The notes under the pieces: generated by a model | Database searches by the model: none | The model's input: only the letters and a program-made list of their open reading frames with translations | Told to the model about the DNA's origin: nothing | In this document: positions 1 through 38,156 of the stretch, in pieces | How the letters are laid out: each line of letters opens with the position of its first letter | How positions within the stretch are numbered: position 1 is the first letter of the stretch | Source of the DNA: a virus | Lineage: Duplodnaviria > Caudoviricetes | DNA length: 64,000 nt | Direction: 5' to 3' (one strand) | Virus record (IMG/VR): IMGVR_UViG_3300045596_000061 | Span: 32,565-96,564 of that record | Translations under genes and position numbers: made by a program

Positions 1-3000
1 GATTCTGTAAGACCAGGAAGAACTTTTTGCTTGTAATTAACTTCTTTATCAGTATCCTGTGATACACTATAGTTAAGAGCCATTACTGCATGTATATTGG
101 ATTTATATTTTATTGATACTGGGTCTACTCCAACATATGTTTTATTATCAACTCTCTTATCTGTTAGTCTTGAGAAGTTTGCAGTAAAAATATCATGAGA
201 ATTATTATATTCAGAATCAGTTCCTGCTACTACTATAGGATAGCCATCAGCTTTCTCTCCTACTCTTGTAACATTAAGAATCTTATCTATATTACCATAA
301 TAATTAATATCAGGTAATCCTGAGTTTTTTGGTGAAGGAATCCTAACTAATGAAACTTCATCAGAATTAAATATAGATACCCCTGAGATACCAGGAAAAT
401 TATCTTCATCATCTGTTTTCTCTGCTGTCCATATCTTATCAGAATCAAGAAATATAGTCTTATAGGAGTATCTTAATGTAGACTCTTTTTTCTTAGATAG
501 TTTAGCTGTCTTATAACTATTATCTATGTCAGCATCCTTGTTAGTTTTAAAGCTGCCATATTTAGTATTATTAAGAGAACCATCTCTATGCCAAGGATAC
601 ACTGCAAAACCTGTAGATAAATGGTCTGTATTTGAATTTTTATTATCTGTTAATTCATCAAACCAGAAAGCCTCTGTAAGTAAACTCTTATATCCAAATA
701 GAGAATCAGGTGCAGTTACTGAAAAATTATTATTTGCCCCTATACTTTCTTTATAAAATCCTAGTGGATGTTCAGTACTACTATTACTATCATCATTAAA
801 TTTATTAGTAATAGAAGAAGTCTGAATATCCACATCTGAAATAAAGGAAGTAAGAGGTATAATTCCTGTGATTCTTAATTTTAACTTAGTAGTATTGATA
901 TTCTGAATCTGACTGTCAAACTCTATATCAGGAGAATGAAGAGTTACTATAGACTGGTCAACATAATAATTTTCTGCATTATTAGTAACGAAAGTTCTTC
1001 TGTTCTCTGTGTCTGTAGATATACTGTCATTATGGCTTATATATGGTGTAGGAGGTGGATTGAATATACATTGTATTTCTGCATTCCTATATACATTACT
1101 AGGTATAGGACTATTGTGTCTAAACTCTGCAACAGACCCCATATCTATAGTATCTAAGTCTATTTCTGTTCCATCATTTAATATTATATGTCTATCATTA
1201 GTAAGTACTTCACCTGCTGAATATTCAGAATATAAACCAGCAGCATTATTACTGTTTGTTATTGGCTGATAATCACTGTTTACTGACTGTGGCTCAAATT
1301 CTTCTATAGGAGCTACAGCAGTAACAGTTATATCACTTGTGTTAGCACCAACACCCTTTATTACAGTTCCTGTACTTGAGCCATTAGGTGCATAGGGAGG
1401 AGGAGGATATAAACTATTATCTAGATTATTCTTTTCATAAATAAACCAGTAGCTTTCACTAGAATAACATAACATAATTAATGTAACTTCCAATGAAGAG
1501 TTAACTGTTTTAGTAGTTACAGAAAGAGGACATCCATATACTGTGTGCCCATCATCACTCCATGAATATAAAGAAGCTTTTTTAAGCACAGTATCAGAAG
1601 TACTTCCAGCAACACTTCCTGTAATCTGTAATAACCATAAGTTACTTGAATCATTATTTAAATCTCCTGCTTTTATCTTTCTTGCATTAGTATTATAATC
1701 AAAAGGTGCATTAGGTCTTATAAACCAAGAAGATTGAGCAAATGGAGTATTACTATATCTATCTGAAACATTATATACTGTAGGACATAACATGCCTTGA
1801 CATACACACTCTCTTTCACTGTAAGAAGGATAAACCATTACTGGTCTTACTCTTCTATAACCAAGATTATAAATAGATTGAAGAATGTCCTCATTATCAA
1901 GTTTAACTATACCTACGGGAAAATATACTGGTTGTGTATTATAATAGTTACCTGTATAAATATGTGCAGTATTTTCTTTATCTCCTATATATATAGCTTC
2001 TGACCATTTTCCTGTTTTATATTGAAACTGAACACCAAATCTATACCACTCAAGATATTTAAAAGTAGTAATTTCTTGTGAATTACCACTAAGTTGATTC
2101 TTATAGGGATAATATCCTGTAGCATCCGGTAAATCAACAGATTTATAAAAAGAGCCTTCTACACCATTAAGATTAGCGGTTGTAAATAATATTCTACGTC
2201 CTCTAAAAGAAGATTTATAATCATTAAGACTTCTCTCATTTATAGTATAATCTCCTAAAAATAAGGTATTATCTTTTTGTGTAAGAGTTCCTGCTGTTAT
2301 ATCTTCTCCTCCTACATACAATAACTCTGTAGGATCTATAGTATCACCTGAAGTTCCTGTATCAGTATAATTTATTATATTATATGTAGCACTTTTAAGT
2401 TTCATTTGACCACTGTTAACAGATACATTATAACCAGAGTAAATTCCTGAATGCCCTGGTGAAGGAAGTGTTACTCTAAAGGTAATTCCCTGCTTATCAA
2501 ATAAAATAATTCTTCCATCATCAAGTTTTACTCCCTTATAGTCAGTGGTGCTTCCCTCAAAGTACTTCTCATAAGTTTCTGTAGAAGTTGATGTATTATA
2601 CCACTGTACAAGTTCTTCTGCACTGTTTCTTTTAATAAGATATACATTACTCATATAGGCAGGAACAACATTATATGTAACATCCTTAAAAATATATAAA
2701 GGAGAAGAAATACTCTTGGGTACTTCTATCTCTAAATCAACAACTCTTTTAGTTGTAGCAGCAGCATCAATACTTGTTCTTACTATTGAATAAACCCTTA
2801 CATAGTCAAAGCTATGGTCAGGATTATTTATTGTAATATCAAAACTGTTACTTATTTTTTCCTCAGGGGAACCTCCTCTTGCATTATAAGATATATAATA
2901 TAGAGGAGAAGTGTAGAATATGTTAGTTTCCTGAGCATACTTATTGAAATAAGTAAAGCAGTACTGTATTACACCAGAAGGAAAAGTACCTCCTGTAATA

Positions 3001-25145: not shown

Positions 25146-27398
25146 TTACTGTTTAAAATCACTTATAATATTAAATTTATTATCATAGTTATCAGTAAAG
25201 AATTTATCATTACCTGCATAATTAGGAGGTATTTCAGTTCTCTCCTTAACATCTCCATTGTACATAATAATTTTTTCCTCTCTATATAACATTAATTGTA
25301 AAAGAGACATTATTCTATCTACATTAATTTCAGGATTATAAAGAATAAGTTCCTTAATTAATGCCCTGTTCTTTAAGAAGTGAAGATTAGGTAATGTGTA
25401 CTGTACTGATTCACCATTTTCTTCTTTTTCTACAGTGACTGGTTTAAGTAACCAATCTCTTATAAGAGTCATACCAAAATTCTTTATAGGTGTAGTTGCA
25501 GCTACTCCTTTAGAGCTATTACCAAAAGATGTAGTTTTAATAAGCTCTCTTTGCCTAAGATATTCAGGAGTATCAGCTAATAGATGTAATGAGTTAAATC
25601 TGCTGAAATAAGCAAAAGTATTCTTTTTATTATTTTCATAAAGAAGTCTTCCATTATAGAATAAACATAGCTTTCTTGCTAATTCATTAAGGTCATCAGC
25701 AAACATAGGTCTTCCTGTATATTCAGCTACTATTCTATCTGTCCATAAATCAAGTACAAATATAGAACCTAAAGACATAGTTTCTGCACTATCATTTTCA
25801 TAGTTATCAAGTGATAGTATATATCTCTCATAAGGTATTTTATTATTAACCTTTACAGGAAGTTCATATATTTCTAATGCTCCTGTTGATTTATTATCCT
25901 TAAGAGGAAAATCTCTTATAGGTTTTTCTGCTGTAGGTTTAAACTCTACAGTATTATCTTTAGCAAAGAATAACTCACCAACATAAGTATCACTATAAAA
26001 ATTAGGGTTGTTATCTATCTCTGCAAGTCTTGAATTAAGCTCGGTAACAGGAAATATGTTTTTCGTATATCTCTGTATAGCTTCCTGTGGAGTAATAGGT
26101 ATTTCAGCTATTCTCTTAGTAATAGTATTAATATCAGTACTTCCATATTTAACTTTGTATCTATCCTTAAGAATGTATATTAAAGCTCCTATAACATCAC
26201 TATTACCATCTTTATCATAATATCCTGCCATATTTATATATCCAGGAAAGAAGTAAGTAAAGACACTTCTACTCTGTCCTTCCTTATCATATACATTATT
26301 AATGCCTTTAATTCTATATCCATTAGGATTATACATAAGTTCCTGTAGAGAACTAAAGTCAGAATCCTTATCACCTGCTGTACCATAAGCATATATAAGA
26401 CCAAAAGTCTTTTCACCATCTTCCACAGAAGGTCTAAGTACAGAGAAAAGGTCTCTTAGTCTAGGGAAAGTACCTGCTTCTTCAAGTAGAAAAAGAACAC
26501 CTCTTGAACCTCTAAGTTTAGACTCATCATCTTTTGATGTAATTCCGACTACACTATTCTGTGTTCCTCTTCTTGCACCTGTATCTGAGTCAATATAACC
26601 CATAGTCCATTGAAGATTCTGCATTGATGATGTAATTCTCTTTGAAGGAAATTGAGTATTAATTGCACAGAAATCTATATAATACTGAAACATATCAAGA
26701 ATCTGATTAGCCCCATGAATATACTTTTTCTCTGATGCAGTAGCAACACACTGTACTTTTACATTTACTTCAGCACTTTCTCCTAATATAAATCTTTTAG
26801 CAAGCATAGCTGCTGCATAGTAAGACTTACCTTTACCTCTACTTGCAAGTTCAACAGCATGTTTACCTTCATTTCTACATTGCTCAAGATAATGTGATTT
26901 AAGATAATGACCTTCCCATACTTTAGGAAATCCTATAGCTCTGTTACTTCTATTATTACTTCCCTCTTTAATAAGCTGTATAGGGCAATAATTAAGAAAG
27001 AAATAAAAATCACCAGTAATCCATTCACCATCTGATGGTCTTATATATCCATCATAGCACCTTCTTATTTCTTCTCTTATCCATTTACCAAACTCACTAT
27101 TAGGATTACTATTAGGCTTAAGTTTAGTATAGCAGCCATTTTTCTCAAAGTATATAGCAGATGGTCTAAAGTAATCCATATTCTCTAAAATATGAGGCTT
27201 TGTTATATCTATTTTAATTCTTCCTAGTTCATCTCTGTCAAGGTCTTTTGCATATAATCTATGAGGAGATATAAGACTCTTTATGTAAGGAATATTATTA
27301 ATACACTCAAAAAACTGTTCCTTTTCTTCACTATTAAGAGTGTTTATAAGTTCTTCAGTAATTGGTGTCTGACAACTATTTACTTTAATTTCATTCAT
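25146..27398 (-). CDS. Terminase large subunit
   Basis: Walker A ASRGKGKS, Walker B LLEEAG, GTAG, nuclease-domain AEYTGRP / YENNK / NVDRI. Confidence 0.9.
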   Translation of the reverse strand: MNEIKVNSCQTPITEELINTLNSEEKEQFFECINNIPYIKSLISPHRLYAKDLDRDELGRIKIDITKPHILENMDYFRPSAIYFEKNGCYTKLKPNSNPNSEFGKWIREEIRRCYDGYIRPSDGEWITGDFYFFLNYCPIQLIKEGSNNRSNRAIGFPKVWEGHYLKSHYLEQCRNEGKHAVELASRGKGKSYYAAAMLAKRFILGESAEVNVKVQCVATASEKKYIHGANQILDMFQYYIDFCAINTQFPSKRITSSMQNLQWTMGYIDSDTGARRGTQNSVVGITSKDDESKLRGSRGVLFLLEEAGTFPRLRDLFSVLRPSVEDGEKTFGLIYAYGTAGDKDSDFSSLQELMYNPNGYRIKGINNVYDKEGQSRSVFTYFFPGYINMAGYYDKDGNSDVIGALIYILKDRYKVKYGSTDINTITKRIAEIPITPQEAIQRYTKNIFPVTELNSRLAEIDNNPNFYSDTYVGELFFAKDNTVEFKPTAEKPIRDFPLKDNKSTGALEIYELPVKVNNKIPYERYILSLDNYENDSAETMSLGSIFVLDLWTDRIVAEYTGRPMFADDLNELARKLCLFYNGRLLYENNKKNTFAYFSRFNSLHLLADTPEYLRQRELIKTTSFGNSSKGVAATTPIKNFGMTLIRDWLLKPVTVEKEENGESVQYTLPNLHFLKNRALIKELILYNPEINVDRIMSLLQLMLYREEKIIMYNGDVKERTEIPPNYAGNDKFFTDNYDNKFNIISDFKQ

Positions 27399-30981: not shown

Positions 30982-31031
30982 ATTATTTTAGAGTTTAAAA
31001 TTAAAATTTATTAGTAACTAAATTAGTATTG

Positions 31032-31063
31032 CAAATATAAGGGATTATTTTCATACATACAAA
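31032..31063 (-). promoter_or_regulatory. Canonical Bacteroidota promoter TTTG-N20-TATATTTG
   Basis: -7 box 31032-31039, -33 box 31060-31063. Confidence 0.65.
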
Positions 31064-31087
31064 TAATATGAGTTTATTTAAATTAAA

Positions 31088-31429
31088 TTAACAGTGTTCA
31101 TGCATATTATCATCAGGCATAGGCTCTTCTGGTTCAGGCTCTCTATGTATATCATGATTTTCTCTATTCTCATATTTCTCTGACCATGCCTTAGTAATAC
31201 CTGCTGATGCAAATACTCCTGCAACAGAAGCTATATAAGCAGCAAGTCCATGTAAGTCAGTCCTTATAGTATGATTATATACTACTTCAATGATAAGTAT
31301 TGCAGCTGGTATTAATAATAATATTAATCCTATAATAGTTACAGCTATAAGAAAGAAGTTCTTTGAGGAAACTCCTGTATTATTCATTACTAGCTTTTTA
31401 ATAAAAGAAGCATTACTTGTTTTTGTCAT
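31088..31429 (-). CDS. 2-TM membrane protein (holin-like)
   Basis: GVSSKNF followed by two TM helices and a charged C-terminus. Confidence 0.55.
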   Translation of the reverse strand: MTKTSNASFIKKLVMNNTGVSSKNFFLIAVTIIGLILLLIPAAILIIEVVYNHTIRTDLHGLAAYIASVAGVFASAGITKAWSEKYENRENHDIHREPEPEEPMPDDNMHEHC

Positions 31430-31452
31430 AGTTTCTTATAAGATTAATGATA

Positions 31453-31842
31453 TTATACTGCTTTATATATTAATTCTTTGCTTTTACTTTTTCTAATAGT
31501 AAATCCCAAAGGAAGTAATGCATACTTATATATCTGCAATAGTCTTTTATTATCAGGAAATATATGCAGTGTACATCCTTTCCTATGCTCTTTAAAGAAT
31601 AGAAGGTAATCAATTAAACATTTCTTTGCCCATAGAAAAGATTTTATTCCATCTTTGCCTGTATGCTGCCCACTCTGAAAGCCCTTTTTTCTTTTAGAGG
31701 TAACATAAAAAGAAAAGTTATACTGATTACCTTCATACAAGTATGACTCACAATTAATTATCTGTCCATATATATTCTTTGATGTATATCTATATAAATC
31801 AACATACTCAAAGTCTCTTTTCTTTTCTACATTATATAACAT
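31453..31842 (-). CDS. Hypothetical protein, possible GNAT-like fold
   Basis: TGKDGIK and R..IY....LGF weak pattern. Confidence 0.45.
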   Translation of the reverse strand: MLYNVEKKRDFEYVDLYRYTSKNIYGQIINCESYLYEGNQYNFSFYVTSKRKKGFQSGQHTGKDGIKSFLWAKKCLIDYLLFFKEHRKGCTLHIFPDNKRLLQIYKYALLPLGFTIRKSKSKELIYKAV

Positions 31843-31870
31843 ATACTATATACTCTGATAAGAATTAAAG

Positions 31871-31944
31871 TGAAAGAGAAGAGACTTGAACTCTTAACCT
31901 ACAGATTAGAAATCTGTTGCTCTATCCAATTGAGCTACTCTTCC
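31871..31944 (-). tRNA. tRNA-Arg(TCT), CCA not encoded
   Basis: Acceptor GGAAGAG/CTCTTTC, D arm TAGCTCAATTGGATAGAGC, anticodon arm ACAGA-TTTCTAA-TCTGT, T loop TTCAAGT. Confidence 0.93.
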
Positions 31945-31949
31945 TTATA

Positions 31950-32573
31950 AAAAAGTAAGAGGCTGCCTTTAAAAACAATGGTCTAAAGTTCAGCCTCTGA
32001 TATTAGTTTAACCGAAATCACTAATATCTAAAAGTAAGTCTTTGACAAAATGAAGTATCTATTATCACTAACTGATGCTACTAACTATAATAAAAATTAT
32101 TACTAAAACCTTGTATGTTAATCCCTATTTAAAACTCATATTGACTTACTTTTATACTTTAATACAGACTTAAAATTTATATTAAAACCAAACAAAATAA
32201 TCTTAAATAATAATGTTATTATCAATCAAGCACAATAATAATTACCTGACGTTTTTATCCATCATCTGATGTAATTTAATTATAGCCACTGCTAATTTAT
32301 ATTTACACCCTTTGCTTATACTATTAATAGGGGGCGGTTATTATCTACTTTTATTGTAGTTTTATCTTGAACTCCTCTTTACCTCAACCTCTTTCTCATC
32401 ATCTTGGTGGGAGACCCCAGTTTATGTCATATAAGTTTTTCAAGTCCTAAGAGATGTATAACTACTCTATGTATAGGTGAGCAGGTCACTCTTTATGCCA
32501 ATCTAACTCAGGTGGTATTCCTTCAGTTTCATTTACTGTAGATTGAAATCTCTGGATGAACAGGGATTAACTG
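31950..32573 (-). ncRNA. Candidate large structured non-coding RNA of unknown family
   Basis: No long ORF; promoter right upstream; several long-range 8-11 bp complementary pairs (see findings). Confidence 0.45.
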
Positions 32574-32577
32574 TGAG

Positions 32578-32613
32578 CAAAGATAGTATAAAAAATTATA
32601 CTGTGCAAATATA
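32578..32613 (-). promoter_or_regulatory. Leftward promoter TTTG-N20-TATCTTTG with a second TATATTTG box
   Basis: TATCTTTG at 32578-32585; TATATTTG at 32606-32613, whose TTTG is the -33 box. Confidence 0.6.
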
Positions 32614-32853
32614 AAAGAATAAAAATGAAAGATTTAATAAAGATTAACTATTGAGTGCTATATTTATATGGGATTTTTATTTTATTTTATTTTTTTTCCT
32701 AAAATTTTTTTTAGAATTTTTTCTAGAATTTTTTAGTATTTCTATGAATGAAAGTCTGTCACCAAATACCCCTCCCAGACTTTGGAGAGTGGGTTTATAG
32801 CCCCTCTCTTACATAGAGATATTCTCTATGTAAATCCATAAAAAATTACAACT

Positions 32854-33126
32854 ATGGAATCCAAGAGTAATATGAGCCTTCAGGCTCTTAAGATGAGTGA
32901 AAATGGTTCAAGCATTGATTTCTTCCCTACAAAGGAAGGAACAGCACACACATTATTCTTTGTGTGTGGAAGTAAACGTGGCTTTGTTAGTGACAAAGCT
33001 GCTGAAACCCTAAGAGAATCAGGTGCTGCTGCCATTAATGAGCTTCAGTATTCTGAGGTGCAACTCACATCAGGTGAGTGGGCACCTTGCATTAGTACTA
33101 AGGGGAAGCCAGCATTTAGCTTGTAA
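32854..33126 (+). CDS. First gene of rightward arm, hypothetical
   Basis: 90 aa with AT-rich leader; followed by hairpins and terminator. Confidence 0.65.
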   Translation: MESKSNMSLQALKMSENGSSIDFFPTKEGTAHTLFFVCGSKRGFVSDKAAETLRESGAAAINELQYSEVQLTSGEWAPCISTKGKPAFSL

Positions 33127-33176
33127 CCCCTTAAAATGACTTCAAGCATTGCTTTAAGCAGTGCTTGTAAGTCATT

Positions 33177-33214
33177 GAGTATTAGGTAGTTAGACTACCT
33201 AATTACTCTTTTTT
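33177..33214 (+). terminator. Intrinsic terminator, preceded by a second long hairpin at 33135-33176
   Basis: gagta-ttaggtagt/actacctaa-tactc followed by TTTTTT. Confidence 0.65.
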
Positions 33215-33522
33215 CTCCATTAAAATTACAATGAAAAAATAGAACAATCAATAAGATTATAACTATTTTTACTGAATAATTCATATATATAATAATTAAA
33301 ATAAGTAGGCATAGCTCAGGCATTTCTGAAAGTTTTAATTATTATTCAAAAAAACTCAAATAGCTTCCCAAGTTGTTGAGGGCACCAGTTTCTTAGATAA
33401 ATGTATTAATATCTTGATCAGATATTGACAATATACACAGAAGAACCTCTGATAGTGAGACACAGTGTATAAATACATTAAAATAAACTAAGTTTTAGGT
33501 GTAAAACACAAAAACACATACT

Positions 33523-33759
33523 ATGGAAACAGGTATAATAATTATTTTGGCAATAATATTTTTATTACCAATAATAATATTAATAATAGGATTATTATCC
33601 TCTTTGATAGCATCACCATTAGTAAGTGATGATACTCCAAAGAAGAATAGAACTATTATATATATTATAAGTACTATAATAGCTATAATTATCATAGCTT
33701 CTATGAATAAATGTCAATCATCTATAGAAGATGACTATCCAGAAGCAAGAACAGAATAA
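33523..33759 (+). CDS. Small membrane protein
   Basis: Two Ile-rich TM segments. Confidence 0.55.
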   Translation: METGIIIILAIIFLLPIIILIIGLLSSLIASPLVSDDTPKKNRTIIYIISTIIAIIIIASMNKCQSSIEDDYPEARTE

Positions 33760-33780
33760 AATAATTAAATAATAAAATTA

Positions 33781-33906
33781 ATGAATAAAGTATTACAAAA
33801 GCTGAATGGTCACTGCTATATGCTTATAGCACACTGTGACAGTAAATTTCTAACTAATTGGGATTACTCTAATAAGAGTAAATCCCATAAAGTATCACTA
33901 TTTTAA
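33781..33906 (+). CDS. Possible 41-aa ORF (MNKVLQKLNGHCYML...)
   Basis: AT-rich leader and ATG; also contains two hairpins, so it may be non-coding. Confidence 0.3.
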   Translation: MNKVLQKLNGHCYMLIAHCDSKFLTNWDYSNKSKSHKVSLF

Positions 33907-33916
33907 TAGATACATT

Positions 33917-34156
33917 ATGAAAAAGTCACTTACAGAGAAGATATTTAAAATAGTTATTCTATGGATAACTATGATACTTACCTTAGTATTAATATGTATG
34001 GGAGCAAATATGAAATTCATAGCTCTTGCTTTCATACTAATAGCCTACACTGCATTATTATGTACTACAGTAGGTTTACTGTCCCTAAGAGAATTTTACA
34101 TCTACTCAGGTGCAAGATTCATTGATACTGTACTAAATAGAACATTAAATAAATAA
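33917..34156 (+). CDS. Small membrane protein
   Basis: Two TM segments. Confidence 0.55.
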   Translation: MKKSLTEKIFKIVILWITMILTLVLICMGANMKFIALAFILIAYTALLCTTVGLLSLREFYIYSGARFIDTVLNRTLNK

Positions 34157-34169
34157 TAATAATAATAAT

Positions 34170-34286
34170 ATGTGGTATAAAGTAGTTGATAACAGTAATG
34201 AAGAGCATAGTATCTATGCTACTTCAAGGCAAGGATTTGATAATTACTTGAGAAAGCATAAGGAATATACAGAGATTAAAGCGTAA
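34170..34286 (+). CDS. Small hypothetical protein, 38 aa (MWYKVVDNSNEEHSIY...)
   Basis: (AAT)n leader, ATG 34170, TAA 34286; hairpin at the 3' end. Confidence 0.5.
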   Translation: MWYKVVDNSNEEHSIYATSRQGFDNYLRKHKEYTEIKA

Positions 34287-34459
34287 TCTCTGCATTGGGG
34301 TCTGCACATTTATGTCTTTATTTTGTAGGTGCTTATATTTTTGTTTTATGATTAGTGTGCAGGCACAGGTTCTCCACTTGAGAAAGCAGGGAACCTTTTC
34401 TCTTTTTACTTTTTAATAAATAATATTTTATTATATAGAAAATTTTAATTAACTTTGCA

Positions 34460-34876
34460 ATGAATAATGATATATATGAAATAACTCCTGCATTTGATAG
34501 TATTTCAGATGCATCAGACTGGTATTTACATCTCTTTGGTTTTAATTCCATAGAAGAACATAATAGAACTAAAGTAGACTTTGAGGAAGGAATTAAGTAT
34601 GCTGCTGAGTGGCACACCTTAGAGGAAATACCTATGAAGAATAAAGCTGTTATTCTTAAATACAATAACTTAGATAATAGGATAGTTTATAAAGTTATTA
34701 TATTTAGAAATGTACAGGAACTCTTAAGTTCTATCCATGAAAGAATACACACAAACAGCATCCTTTGGAGATACATAGAGTTTATCGATACTAGAATAAA
34801 CTGTGATAAATGTAAGGCAAGCAAGTATTGTGATACCACAGTATCCAGCATTAAACTGTGTAGCAGAACACAATAA
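34460..34876 (+). CDS. Hypothetical protein with C-terminal Cys cluster
   Basis: F.EG..YA.EWH...E.P pattern; CDKC...C; TAACTTTG box at 34450-34457. Confidence 0.55.
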   Translation: MNNDIYEITPAFDSISDASDWYLHLFGFNSIEEHNRTKVDFEEGIKYAAEWHTLEEIPMKNKAVILKYNNLDNRIVYKVIIFRNVQELLSSIHERIHTNSILWRYIEFIDTRINCDKCKASKYCDTTVSSIKLCSRTQ

Positions 34877-35129
34877 TACAGAATATTATAGGAAGCTATA
34901 ACACATAGTTAGAAGTTTCCTTCATAATATATATCCTGATATACATCTGATATTGAATAGGAAGTATATGCTGATAGGCAAGCTATCATTAAATGTCCTG
35001 TTCACGGGTAGAAGCACCATTACTTTAGGACGTGAAACGCAAAAGCATAAACGTTTGACTTTAAGCAGTCTTTCAATAAGAAAGAGGTTGACTTTTTAGG
35101 ACATTTTTCAAAGTAAAAATCCAATTTAT

Positions 35130-35518
35130 GGGGGATAGATTGGCTTTGATTGATAAGAATCAGATTAAAGGACATGCTGACTGTATGAAAAGACATGCAA
35201 AACAATAAGTGCAGATAATACAGAATATCGCATTGCAGCTTAAGGCTGCTTGAGTATCACTTACTTAGAAACAGAAAGGTGAAAAGGTCTGTTAGGAGTC
35301 TAAGACAGAGTGCCCTACTTCTAGAACATTAATTGCTGTGGTTTCGCAGAAGGCAGCTCTACTTTTTAACTGTTTATGGACAATAAAACAGTTTGGTGGA
35401 AAGAATGTTAAATACATTCAGCTCCTGAAGTTATTGACTTCATTAAAAACAATATAAGCATGTAAGAATCCTTTCTTAGGATATCATCAAGACCTGAGTT
35501 CGACTCTCAGATCCTCCA
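35130..35518 (+). ncRNA. ssrA: tmRNA with tag peptide (A)ADNTEYRIAA*
   Basis: Acceptor GGGGGAT/ATCCTCC-A with G3.U70; T arm CTGAG-TTCGACT-CTCAG; tag ORF 35211-35243 after AATAAGT. Confidence 0.92.
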
Positions 35519-35839
35519 CTAAAACAAAACAGTATGTACTTATTTATTCCGGCATACTTACTTGGTTAACAAAGTCTTTATTAAAAGGAATAAAAACAAA
35601 TCCTACATATGAGTAGGTTGACTGTATGTTAAATAAGACATACTGAGTTGACAGCTATAATTAACTGTAAACCTCTATAAAGTATATAGAAGGTCATCCT
35701 TATTGGAGTTTGGACTATATACATTTTAAGCGAAGAACTCTTAATGGCAACATTACTAGAGTTCATTTAAAAACCAAAGGTATCTGGTTTCCTATAAATA
35801 GGTTTGAGGTACCATTTTTAATTGAACATATTCTATCAT

Positions 35840-36235
35840 ATGGACTTAAGTATAAAAGTAAATCTTGTCATTGAACTTCCAGGAAGTACAATGTATAGTA
35901 AGCAGGAGTGCTTAAAAGAACTCACAGACAAGGATAACAACACTGTTATTGCTGAGGATATTGATAAATATAATCAGCATACTCTTAAAGGAACTGATAA
36001 GAAAGGTGTTCCTTATGTTATCCACTATAAGACAAGAAAAGCAAAACCTGCCTTACAGGTTCTTGCTATCTCTAAGTACGCCTATGACTACATGATTTCT
36101 GATGAGTGCCCTGAATGGGAGAGAAAGAATGATTGGAAACTGAAGAATGCAGATAGCAGATTAAGTTCTCACCTGCATAGAATAGCTTCAGATATGAGAG
36201 GCACAGTAAAAGCTGTTGATGTCTATGAAGACTAA
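35840..36235 (+). CDS. Hypothetical protein
   Basis: Probable start MDLSIKV at 35840; followed by terminator. Confidence 0.6.
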   Translation: MDLSIKVNLVIELPGSTMYSKQECLKELTDKDNNTVIAEDIDKYNQHTLKGTDKKGVPYVIHYKTRKAKPALQVLAISKYAYDYMISDECPEWERKNDWKLKNADSRLSSHLHRIASDMRGTVKAVDVYED

Positions 36236-36244
36236 ATAGCTTTG

Positions 36245-36285
36245 AGTATGAGAGGGGATTATGTCCTTTCTCATACTATTTTTTT
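36245..36285 (+). terminator. Intrinsic terminator
   Basis: agtatgagaggggat/gtcctttctcatact followed by T7. Confidence 0.75.
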
Positions 36286-36301
36286 AATTTAATCTTATAA
36301 A

Positions 36302-36469
36302 ATGGAAGTAATAATTTTAATAGTTATATCAATAATAATACTATTCAACTTATACAAGATTTATAGTCCACATATAGATTTAGTAAGAGGAAAAACCAAA
36401 TTTACTATACTATTATGGTACACAAGTTCCGACAGTATAAGGAAAAATATAAAGCTGTTAGTATTATGA
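36302..36469 (+). CDS. Small membrane protein, 55 aa (not in ORF track)
   Basis: MEVIILIVISIIILFNLYKIYSPHID...; stop overlaps the next start (ATGA). Confidence 0.55.
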   Translation: MEVIILIVISIIILFNLYKIYSPHIDLVRGKTKFTILLWYTSSDSIRKNIKLLVL

Positions 36470-36942
36470 AACAAAGACATTATTTAATACTGTTAATGTG
36501 CTTTTTATTTATCTTTCCTATAATTAGTACACCTAAAGGAGAAAGTAGTAATTATTACTATCACTTTAATACTGCAATAAGTAATAAAAAGGAAATGAGT
36601 TTCCTGAATAAAACTCCTGAAGAAGGACTTATGGAGGCTTTATATTACTATAATATCAAACACCCTGAGATTGTATATGCTCAGGCTATACTTGAAAGTG
36701 GTAATTTTAAATCCAATGTTGCTCTTAAATATAATAATCTCTTTGGTCTTTATGATTCAAAGAGAGGCACATACTATAAGTTCAATCACTGGTCAGAGTC
36801 TATAAAGGGATATAAAGACTATATTCAATATAAGTATAAAGGCAATGATTATTATCAGTTTCTGACTGATATAGGATATGCTGAAGATACTCTTTATATA
36901 GACAAGATAAAGAAAGTAGTCAAATTAAATAAAGAATTATGA
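36466..36942 (+). CDS. GH73 glucosaminidase with N-terminal signal/anchor
   Basis: AQAILESGNFKS, NNLFGL, GYAED..YI; probable start MKQRH at 36466. Confidence 0.8.
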   Translation: MKQRHYLILLMCFLFIFPIISTPKGESSNYYYHFNTAISNKKEMSFLNKTPEEGLMEALYYYNIKHPEIVYAQAILESGNFKSNVALKYNNLFGLYDSKRGTYYKFNHWSESIKGYKDYIQYKYKGNDYYQFLTDIGYAEDTLYIDKIKKVVKLNKEL

Positions 36943-38156
36943 AACAGAGAGATACTCTTCTTAAAGAGATACTTACTTTTATCCCTACTTATCATAATAT
37001 AGCTCTTCAATGGGCTACAGGAGTAGGGAAATCAAGAGCTGCTATAGAATTATGCAATAAGGTAAGAATAACTCTTCATAGAGAGCCTTCAATACTTCTT
37101 ATAGTAGCAGAGACTGCACATAAAAAGAACTGGGAGAATGAGTTTATAAAGTGGGGAGCTTCTTTTACTAATATTACTATAGAGTGCTATGCTTCTCTTA
37201 AGAACTATAAGAACTCAAACTATGACATAGTTATATTTGATGAGGCTCATCATTTAAGCTCAGATTTAAGACTTGATATAGTAGATAGTATAAAGGCTGA
37301 CTATGTATTCTTATTATCTGCTACTCTATCAGATAACTTTATGATTGCCCTTTCAGGGATATTCAGTAAATTCATCACTTCTAAGGTTACTCTTAAAGAA
37401 GCCATCAGTAATAAATGGCTTCCTAAACCTAAGATATATATTATACCTATTAATCTTAGTAATACTTTACTTACAGGAGAAATAGTAGAAAAATGGGGAA
37501 AAGGGTCTCATAAGATAAGATGTGTTTATGCAGATAGGTGGAAGTATCTTAAAAGGAAGAGTTCATATCCTAACACAGAACTTCATATATTATGTTCACA
37601 GAAGCAGGAATATGACTATTATACTGAAAGATTTGAATATTGGAAGCAGTGCTACTATAATTCAAGAATGGTTTATATGAGAAATCAATGGATGCTTGCA
37701 GGTTCTAAGAGAAAGAGATTTCTTGGAGACTCAAAGACATCTGTAGCTAAAGGCATACTCTCTTTAATACATAATAAGAGATATATATGCTTTTGTTCAA
37801 GTATAAAACAGGCAGAATCTTTAGGAGGAAAGAACTGCATTCACTCAAAGAAGAAAGACTCCCTTACTGTAATAGATTCCTTTAATAAAGGTGATATTAA
37901 TAATCTCTATGCTGTAGGTATGTTGCAGGAAGGTCAGAATCTCAATAACATTGAAGCTGATATAATTATTCAGTTAGATGGTAAAGAGAGAGCTTTCATA
38001 CAGAAGTTTGGCAGAGGATTAAGAGCAGAGGACCCTATTCAGTTTATACTCTATTATAAAGGTACAAGGGATGAAGAATATCTTAATGCCCTTCTTCCTG
38101 GAATAGACAATAAGTATATAAATTATGTAAACAACATTAATGACATAGTATTATGA
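36939..38156 (+). CDS. Superfamily 2 DEAD/DEAH-like helicase
   Basis: ATGVGKS, DEAHH, LSAT, EGQN, QKFGRGLR. Confidence 0.88.
   Translation: MKQRDTLLKEILTFIPTYHNIALQWATGVGKSRAAIELCNKVRITLHREPSILLIVAETAHKKNWENEFIKWGASFTNITIECYASLKNYKNSNYDIVIFDEAHHLSSDLRLDIVDSIKADYVFLLSATLSDNFMIALSGIFSKFITSKVTLKEAISNKWLPKPKIYIIPINLSNTLLTGEIVEKWGKGSHKIRCVYADRWKYLKRKSSYPNTELHILCSQKQEYDYYTERFEYWKQCYYNSRMVYMRNQWMLAGSKRKRFLGDSKTSVAKGILSLIHNKRYICFCSSIKQAESLGGKNCIHSKKKDSLTVIDSFNKGDINNLYAVGMLQEGQNLNNIEADIIIQLDGKERAFIQKFGRGLRAEDPIQFILYYKGTRDEEYLNALLPGIDNKYINYVNNINDIVL

Follow-up and report, generated by a model that had tools for sequence, protein, structure and literature searches.

A putative structured noncoding RNA of crAss-like phages and its divergent copy in a Steigviridae-like gut phage

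ROOL and GOLLD are large, ornate RNAs of phages, prophages and bacteria that are often found beside transfer RNA (tRNA) genes, and the putL and putR RNAs of phage HK022 are cis-acting leaders of processive antitermination. Here we describe a putative noncoding RNA (ncRNA) on the minus strand of a 64,000-nucleotide (nt) stretch of DNA (hereafter, the window), which covers positions 32,565 to 96,564 of IMG/VR record IMGVR_UViG_3300045596_000061, the 96.5-kb record of a crAss-like, Steigviridae-like gut phage. The element in question, at 32112-32572 of the window, is very probably a real, conserved and structured ncRNA, belonging to an RNA family present in many crAss-like (Steigviridae-type) phages of Bacteroidales, the cultured phage crAss001 among them. 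An earlier examination of the same DNA without database searches (the sequence-only reading) had proposed an undescribed, promoter-driven structured ncRNA on this strand and with this start, and the proposal is backed by a match to a covariance model built from other phages, by a promoter and by covariation across the family.

ROOL (RF03087) and GOLLD (RF01998) are, like this RNA, large, elaborately folded and carried by phages, and they often adjoin tRNA genes. The window RNA has such a tRNA-adjacent location, and its resemblance to the two is one of context only. Both known RNAs are longer (~580 and ~800 nt versus ~300 nt) and have different conserved motifs; unlike them, the RNA described here has so far been found in crAss-like phages only. 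The sequence-only reading had also considered a distant member of such a class, an idea to which the covariance models of Rfam 15 lend no backing: neither GOLLD nor ROOL gave a match at the gathering threshold in the window, or at E-values up to 10 in the segment 31000-37000, and in 12 other family members nothing in Rfam matched at the RNA at E-values up to 1. The only Rfam matches in 31000-37000 are a tRNA-Arg and a transfer-messenger RNA (tmRNA), with nothing inside 31945-32573. The comparison with Rfam by cmscan, which had been proposed as a check, found no known family in the region, consistent with an undescribed ncRNA. RNase P, tmRNA, group I and II introns, and hammerhead and other small ribozymes are ruled out as far as the Rfam models see. 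In a crAss001-like contig (L133), the archaeal RNase P model gave a weak match at 1787-1922 (minus strand), on the strand of the RNA and ~1 kb upstream of it; with 22 bits and an E-value of 0.012 this match falls far short of the gathering score and is probably due to chance.

Abundant ncRNAs have been described from two gaps of the Cellulophaga phage phi14:2 by Drobysheva et al. (bioRxiv 10.1101/2020.03.07.982082; Nature 2021). They are early, long transcripts of the g004-g005 and g005-g006 gaps, and the early genes of phi14:2 are assigned to the virion polymerase (10.1101/2020.03.07.982082). The predicted RNA of the window is likewise a noncoding transcript from a long intergenic gap, in a crAss-like phage of the same subfamily (Asinivirinae), but it has a host-type promoter and stands at the head of the late/tRNA arm, whereas the phi14:2 RNAs are found among early genes. 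Homology between them was rejected, as the covariance model of our RNA (R1, see below) finds nothing in the whole phi14:2 genome (NC_021806) at E-values up to 1; with filters off, its best match in the first 9 kb of phi14:2 had an E-value of 0.099 and lay on the wrong strand.

The HK022 put system is similar in arrangement, with a folded RNA just after a promoter and before terminators and a long operon; the order in the window is promoter, RNA, terminator-like hairpin and genes. However, the put RNAs are ~70 nt long with two stem-loops, compared with 255-465 nt for the RNA described here, and several members of our family, unlike put, are cut off from the operon by a terminator of their own or by a second promoter.

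The conserved core and its distribution

Relatives of the phage were fetched by their terminase (32 loci, 60-75% identity), and most of them have a gap of 300-620 nt, free of open reading frames (ORFs), at the point where the gene arms diverge. A shared motif, ACCAA..UGAGAAAAGGUUGAGGGUAAA...AACCGCC, was spotted by reading the sequences behind the promoters of these relatives, and a profile of the motif found further copies in loci outside its build set. The covariance model R1, for which a structure was written on an alignment of 16 crAss-like phages with the window excluded, gave a match of 41.9 bits (E 1.3e-5 over the window) at 32268-32445 on the minus strand, the sole one in the whole 96.5-kb genome. 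In the family, the core is composed of the stacked helices H1, H2 and H3 and an ACC/GGU helix around invariant purine-rich loops, i.e. the hairpin loop UGAGAAAA, the internal loop UGAGGGUAAA and the bulge AACCGCC. The window has this core fold, with loops that read UGAGAAAG, UGAGGUAAA and AACCGCC, and its parts are as follows.

32268-32445, minus strand: conserved core domain (R1 match)
32430-32435 / 32315-32320, minus strand: helix H1 (coordinates checked)
32415-32418 / 32330-32333, minus strand: helix H2, canonical in the window
32410-32413 / 32372-32375, minus strand: helix H3, canonical in the window
32406-32408 / 32387-32389, minus strand: 3-bp helix ACC/GGU, canonical in the window
32390-32405, minus strand: hairpin loop AAGAUGAUGAGAAAGA
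32376-32386, minus strand: internal loop UGAGGUAAAGA
32333-32339, minus strand: AACCGCC bulge
32345-32359, minus strand: lineage-specific hairpin inserted in the core bulge

Over 29 distinct sequences, 88.2% of the pair cells are canonical (58.7% in shuffles and 33-45% when the partners are slid), compensatory change is seen at 28 of the 30 pairs, and the covariation score was reached by none of 500 shuffles; these pair counts are inflated, as A4, the alignment used, had been fitted to the model. Raw, unfitted sequences show the same covariation. The five pairs that close the motif vary between GUCCU/AGGAC, AGCCU/AGGCU, GACCU/AGGUC, AGCAC/GUGCU, GAUGC/GCAUC, CUGCU/AGCAG and others, with two more helices stacked outside them. 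H3 is 97.9% paired, with three to four pair types at 4/5 of its pairs, and ACC/GGU changes to GCC/GGC in four sequences with zero exceptions. The frequent G-U pairs fix the strand of the RNA. In the comparison of related phages that the sequence-only reading had called for, a family core is conserved and covaries; the helices that carry this covariation, H1, H2, H3 and ACC/GGU, are other ones than those which that reading had listed.

In the family, H1 is usually followed directly by a GNRA-capped hairpin (H4), the weakest helix, which is 74% paired family-wide, then by a variable hairpin and by a conserved 3' block. The window lacks the GNRA-capped H4, most H4 pairs being non-canonical in the R1 alignment, and has in its place a longer AU-rich hairpin with a different tip.

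Across 63 sources, R1 found 36 copies; those outside the seed include the loci L029, L002, L005/6 and L026 as well as phage crAss001. Where the RNA is found, there is one copy per genome. A degenerate 17-base core pattern retrieved 50 stretches from IMG/VR, 48 of them with family flanks and almost all on contigs of 92-104 kb. In the L034/cr116_1 group, a recognisable, diverged copy is missed by R1. When the core pattern was searched for in prokaryote genome bins, two family members were present among the 80 matches listed; both look like binned phage contigs, and there is no sign of a host-chromosome homologue among these matches. One member (L176, 1227-1395, minus strand, 68 bits) comes from a 42.6-kb contig assigned to a metagenome-assembled genome of a goat-caecum Prevotella sp., and this is either a binned phage contig or a hint at a host.

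The copy in crAss001 (MH675552, ~659-985) scores 129 bits with R1 and occupies the unannotated gap between gp2 and gp3, before the tRNA array; the first 4.6 kb of this genome contain at least 18 tRNA genes. The commonest variant of the family (L086 group) is 96% identical to MH675552 positions 659-1077. The core fold, the loops, the promoter type and distance, the 3' block and the strand, i.e. that of the tRNA and late genes, are the same in the window and in crAss001. However, the window copy is ~140-170 nt longer, has the extra hairpin in the core bulge, is devoid of a GGGG run and has a 5' domain that cannot be recognised from its sequence. Behind the window RNA come a terminator-like hairpin and one tRNA, whereas in crAss001 small ORFs and the tRNA array come next. 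One of these ORFs, gp3 (MH675552 999-1148), starts ~14 nt after the end of the RNA and encodes 49 amino acids (aa); its annotation as a 'putative beta-fructosidase' looks doubtful. It is also known that crAss001 has a TROVE protein (PMC8375218). A Ro/TROVE partner was rejected as unlikely for the window phage, whose genome has no TROVE domain.

Full-text literature searches found no paper describing an RNA in the gp2-gp3 gap of crAss001, and the RNA-sequencing paper on this phage reports three transcription modules and describes no such RNA. We regard the RNA family as uncatalogued and new, and the window copy as its most divergent member known.

The gene-free gap and the predicted transcript

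The large ORFs of the window match crAss-type terminase and portal families. By its large terminase, the phage has Pamirivirus cr116_1 (Steigviridae, Asinivirinae) as its nearest named relative, with 70.6% identity; identity to the crAss001 terminase is ~52%. Leftward genes occupy the window up to 31842 (among them the terminase at 25146-27398 and the portal), and rightward ones follow from 32854 (helicase, primase-region genes and polymerase). The RNA locus is situated in the 909-nt divergent gap between the two arms (31945-32853), where it is the first element of the arm with the tRNA genes and the packaging and structural genes. In most relatives (loci L005-L036 were compared) an array of ~5-16 tRNAs is found at the same place, versus one tRNA in the window phage.

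The absence of ORFs, claimed in the sequence-only reading, holds: under translation table 11 the minus strand of 31945-32573 contains no ORF of at least 30 aa. Recoding of TGA as W yielded no ORF of at least 60 aa inside this region, and recoding of TAG as Q yielded a single 96-aa frame (31758-32048) that runs over the tRNA gene. A hidden protein gene was rejected, since the recoded frames are empty or tRNA-crossing and the shared motif is not in frame between lineages. The remnant of a decayed tRNA array was also rejected, as no weak tRNA matches were present in the region at E-values up to 10. In blastn comparisons, the tRNA alone matched GenBank phages, and against 35 related loci only the tRNA and 32705-32805 were alignable. 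An exact 17-mer from the region had no match in IMG/VR, and its 49 matches in metagenomes were all due to chance. The flanking 129-aa protein has no homologue besides itself, an identical copy being present on six contigs.

The predicted transcription unit comprises, apart from the core, the following features.

32578-32609, minus strand: Bacteroidota-type sigma-70 promoter TTTG-N20-TAtcTTTG (exact consensus match)
32446-32572, minus strand: 5' part of the RNA, phage-specific sequence between promoter and core
32130-32267, minus strand: AT-rich segment (20% G+C) between core and 3' block
32112-32129, minus strand: family-conserved 3' block AAUAGGGAUUAACAUACA, consensus YUAGGGAUWAYUAUA
31999-32028, minus strand: stable hairpin of 9 bp within the 3' tail (from folding)
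31945-31998, minus strand: terminator-like element (from folding), an 8-bp G+C-containing stem AGAGGCUG/CAGCCUCU with an inner stem, then UACUUUUUUAUAA
31870-31944, minus strand: tRNA-Arg, anticodon UCU (TCT), found by ARAGORN and Rfam (Rfam 31871-31944)

The promoter noticed in the sequence-only reading was confirmed as a match to the consensus TTTG-N20-TAnnTTTG at 32578-32609, and from its position the transcript is predicted to start at ~32571-32572. Three of the four matches to the consensus in the window fall in same-strand intergenic gaps. Among the homologous gaps of relatives that were examined, 14 of 15 have a full consensus promoter on the same strand, which is that of the late genes, the exception being a gap of 65 nt. 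In the family, the promoter (TTTG-N18-22-TAnnTTTG, same strand) ends 143-203 nt upstream of the core motif in nearly all members with enough upstream sequence; in the window this distance is 179 nt. On the minus strand of 31945-32853 there are no further TAnnTTTG boxes, and the next same-strand promoter in the window is at 31032-31063.

Drawn by eye, the 5' domain of the family has a hairpin (Ha) just after the start, a long-range helix (Hb) and a bulged helix (Hc) around a further one (Hd), with an AAAUA loop and the internal loops GGGUAGUA / GAGGUWA. The sequences of these helices differ between lineages, and in a plain MAFFT alignment, made without reference to a structure, 96.6% of Hd is paired. 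The 5' part of the window RNA corresponds to this domain in position. By eye only, it contains loosely analogous helices (ACAG/CUGU, AAGAG/CUCUU and GUGA/UCAC) as possible counterparts; a profile of the family domain finds no match in it, and its fold z-score is +0.63 (see below).

The 3' block, YUAGGGAUWAYUAUA, was found in 15 of the 17 lineages inspected. The distance from the -7 box of the promoter to the end of this block is 467 nt in the window versus 255-365 nt in 16 other lineages, and the conserved RNA thus measures ~255-365 nt in other phages and ~460 nt in the window (32112-32572). The window block lies beyond the range of the family because a 138-nt AT-rich segment is inserted before it. 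This segment, which makes the window copy ~140-170 nt longer than the other members, occupies the position of their one short variable hairpin and has no counterpart among the relatives compared.

The sequence-only reading had listed two long-range pairs that cross each other and had taken them to imply a pseudoknot or an alternative fold. The first one (32117-32126 / 32562-32571) is present as a perfect helix of 10 bp, extending to 13 nt at 92%. It does land on the 3' block that the family conserves, but the other members do not keep an equivalent pairing. In the window, the block (32112-32129) is complementary to the predicted 5' end of the RNA (32559-32571), with a duplex energy of -18.4 kcal/mol. 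Across the family, the mean energies of such duplexes are -10.6 kcal/mol for a member's own ends, -9.3 for cross pairings and -8.3 for shuffled partners, and the partners of the block at the 5' end sit at inconsistent positions. A 5'-3' closing helix was therefore rejected as a family-wide feature, since own energies barely beat the controls; in the window sequence it is present, but lineage-specific or unproven. The second pair, which crosses the first, is also present and, at 12 bp (32029-32040 / 32143-32154), is 1 bp longer than had been claimed; it lies in DNA without a counterpart in other phages, one of its arms (32143-32154) being contained in the AT-rich segment. Taken as a set, the inverted repeats are only modestly beyond chance (p ~0.03): the region has four 10-mer inverted matches versus 0.80 expected, and 3.3% of dinucleotide shuffles reach four.

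Both hairpins that the sequence-only reading had placed at the 3' end (31958-31965/31991-31998 and 31999-32007/32020-32028) are present. Folding of the 3' tail (31940-32115) gives a z-score of -2.46 with two stable hairpins. The element at 31945-31998, a hairpin with a U-tract, stops one base short of the tRNA; it resembles an intrinsic terminator and may act as one; a consensus terminator scan did not list it, its loop being above the size limit of the tool. As had been claimed, the RNA lies beside a tRNA gene, tRNA-Arg being its immediate downstream neighbour on that strand. Since the next promoter comes only at 31032-31063, this tRNA and the two ORFs after it would depend on read-through. 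An RNA of ~600 nt transcribed toward the tRNA, as first envisaged, agrees with these data in its direction, but the full 625 nt would be reached only if the hairpin at 31958-31998 is its end.

Function of the RNA

Based on our observations, we suggest, as the best explanation overall and on balance the one we favour, that the window RNA is a divergent family member acting as a free-standing folded RNA. As to whether it acts in trans and not in cis, we lean only slightly towards the former. Host RNA polymerase would start near 32571, and the RNA would run to the 3' block, or on to the hairpin and U-tract at 31945-31998, with read-through supplying tRNA-Arg. The partner bound by its invariant loops would be a protein or a second RNA from the expression machinery of either host or phage, and the RNA would work on its own, not as the leader of a message. 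Several arrangements argue for such independence: in L097 the RNA is followed by a strong terminator and then by a new promoter-like box; L102 and the L034 group have another full consensus promoter behind the RNA, ahead of the next gene; L026 and L029 carry the RNA ~2 kb away from the late arm, in a gap surrounded by ORFs of the opposite strand; and in the window a terminator-like hairpin comes after the RNA. Moreover, the first ORF downstream of the RNA differs between lineages, for which reason a riboswitch tied to a particular gene was rejected.

A somewhat improbable alternative, suggested by analogy with HK022 put and ribosomal antitermination, is a cis-acting operon leader that stays on, or signals to, the transcribing host polymerase, so that the latter reads through the terminator-like hairpin, the untranslated tRNAs and the ~30-kb late operon, or that attenuates entry into it. 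This would suit an RNA which is always on the late-gene strand, usually as the very first transcribed element of the arm, and which in 10 of 17 lineages is followed, 11-41 nt past the 3' block, by the start of an ORF of at least 40 aa. It would also suit the long untranslated tRNA arrays behind the RNA in crAss001 and others, and the window itself, where the hairpin and U-tract between the RNA and the promoterless tRNA make read-through a requirement. However, such a leader is hard to reconcile with the terminator and/or second full promoter found before the next gene in several lineages, or with the two lineages in which the RNA is ~2 kb from the operon among opposite-strand ORFs. With 255-365 nt and an ornate fold, the RNA is also far above the size of known antitermination leaders, and no boxA-like or put-like similarity was seen, although no test was aimed at put likeness.

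The remaining explanations seem much weaker to us. By analogy with ColE1 RNA II or the T7 origin, an origin-associated transcript would prime or activate replication via an R-loop, with the 20% G+C segment 32130-32267 as the unwinding region and a promoter and G-tract RNA at the switch of strand and GC skew. We consider this very unlikely. The cumulative GC skew does reach its minimum at ~32200-32500, near the divergence point of the two gene arms, and the RNA has conserved G-rich single-stranded runs, but a change of coding strand accounts equally well for the skew; the very AT-rich segment after the core occurs in the window phage and in none of the other members; in L026 and L029 the RNA is not located at the divergence point; and no iterons or DnaA-box-like repeats are present inside 31945-32573. 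The extensive compensatory changes point to the function of a folded RNA, though RNA II is folded as well. It is highly unlikely, too, that the RNA is a ribozyme or scaffold that processes, modifies or protects phage tRNAs. Its vicinity to tRNA genes or arrays in the window, crAss001 and many other members, its invariant unpaired nucleotides and its GNRA-capped hairpin, typical of tertiary-structured RNAs, would fit this role, which is contradicted by the lack of matches to models of RNase P, group I/II introns, hammerhead or other ribozymes, by members in which tRNAs are more than 2 kb downstream or none was seen in the nearby sequence covered (e.g. L011 and L012), and by the lack of evidence of cleavage sites. 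Most improbable is the view that there is no functional RNA at all, only an AT-rich spacer whose inverted repeats arose by chance, with a promoter that merely serves the tRNA. Inverted repeats marginally above chance, weak fold z-scores and the failure to find a close relative in which conservation across the whole 627 nt could be examined speak for it. It is already largely refuted by the R1 match and the covariation: the core is the one place in the genome matched by a model from other phages (E 1e-5), with promoter and 3' block in family order, and covariation across the family is very strong.

Several points weigh against the reading of the window RNA as a free-standing family member. The start, the ends and the expression of the RNA are predicted from sequence. 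The window copy has the lowest score of the 36 R1 matches, its H1 and H4 align to the model with mismatches, and a hidden Markov model of the 5' domains of 15 members has no match in 32446-32577. R1 matches were obtained in only 9 of 19 complete terminase relatives, and the pair counts are subject to the inflation mentioned above. Folding of the window sequence by itself gives no significant signal: the z-score of the minimum free energy is -1.96 for the 627 nt of the minus strand versus -1.37 for the plus strand, and it comes to -1.64 for 32110-32572 and to +0.63 for the first 133 nt. Finally, the constant late-gene strand and the missing promoter motif of the window tRNA-Arg both fit a cis leader, and the ORFs that begin shortly after the 3' block count in the same direction. 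The window sequence alone would make a weak case; the decisive support is comparative and comes from 32268-32445 together with the promoter and the 3' block, and it does not extend to the two long-range pairs of the sequence-only reading.

If the RNA is indeed free-standing, it may even represent a new functional class, i.e. a trans-acting, tertiary-structured RNA that crAss-like phages produce from a host promoter and that captures or re-programmes a component of Bacteroidales gene expression. We put this forward tentatively, as a possibility. Its target would be, for example, RNA polymerase, Rho, a ribonuclease or the ribosome, with the purine-rich loops as the binding surface.

Neighbouring elements and significance

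A second conserved noncoding element, heading the replication arm, lies on the plus-strand side of the same gap (32693-32810). In this element, 3.5 copies of TTTTTTCTAGAA precede a block of C-run, hairpin and G-run, and it shows 70-76% identity with six other lineages, in which the hairpin is often GCC-UUCG-GGC. It could be a promoter/operator, an origin element or another leader RNA. The tmRNA mentioned above is encoded at 35130-35521 (plus strand), with the tag peptide ADNTEYRIAA (ARAGORN and Rfam, 67.2 bits), within an ORF-poor zone of 3.5 kb (33150-36400).

Four relatives have tRNAs with the anticodon CUA, labelled 'Pyl' by ARAGORN (L002 4373-4444, L025 6034-6107, L035 6023-6099 and L036 6121-6193), which suggests that TAG is read as sense in their late genes. 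L025 and L036 show long ORF-free gaps under table 11. In L027, L028, L030 and L033 the match to the large terminase is stretched by ~1 kb (it spans ~3.2 kb), as expected for an intron or intein.

Among the viruses of the human gut, crAss-like phages are the most abundant, and to our knowledge the control of their gene expression is almost unexplored. The RNA described here is likely to be an important player, since it is kept by compensatory mutation in phages whose terminases are only ~52% identical, has a host-type promoter and stands at the head of the arm with the tRNA and structural genes. The divergent copy of the window, with its extra segment, strong 5'-3' helix and terminator-like hairpin before a lone tRNA, helps to define which parts are indispensable. 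As the RNA is also present in crAss001, which is grown on Bacteroides intestinalis in the laboratory, its proposed role is directly testable.

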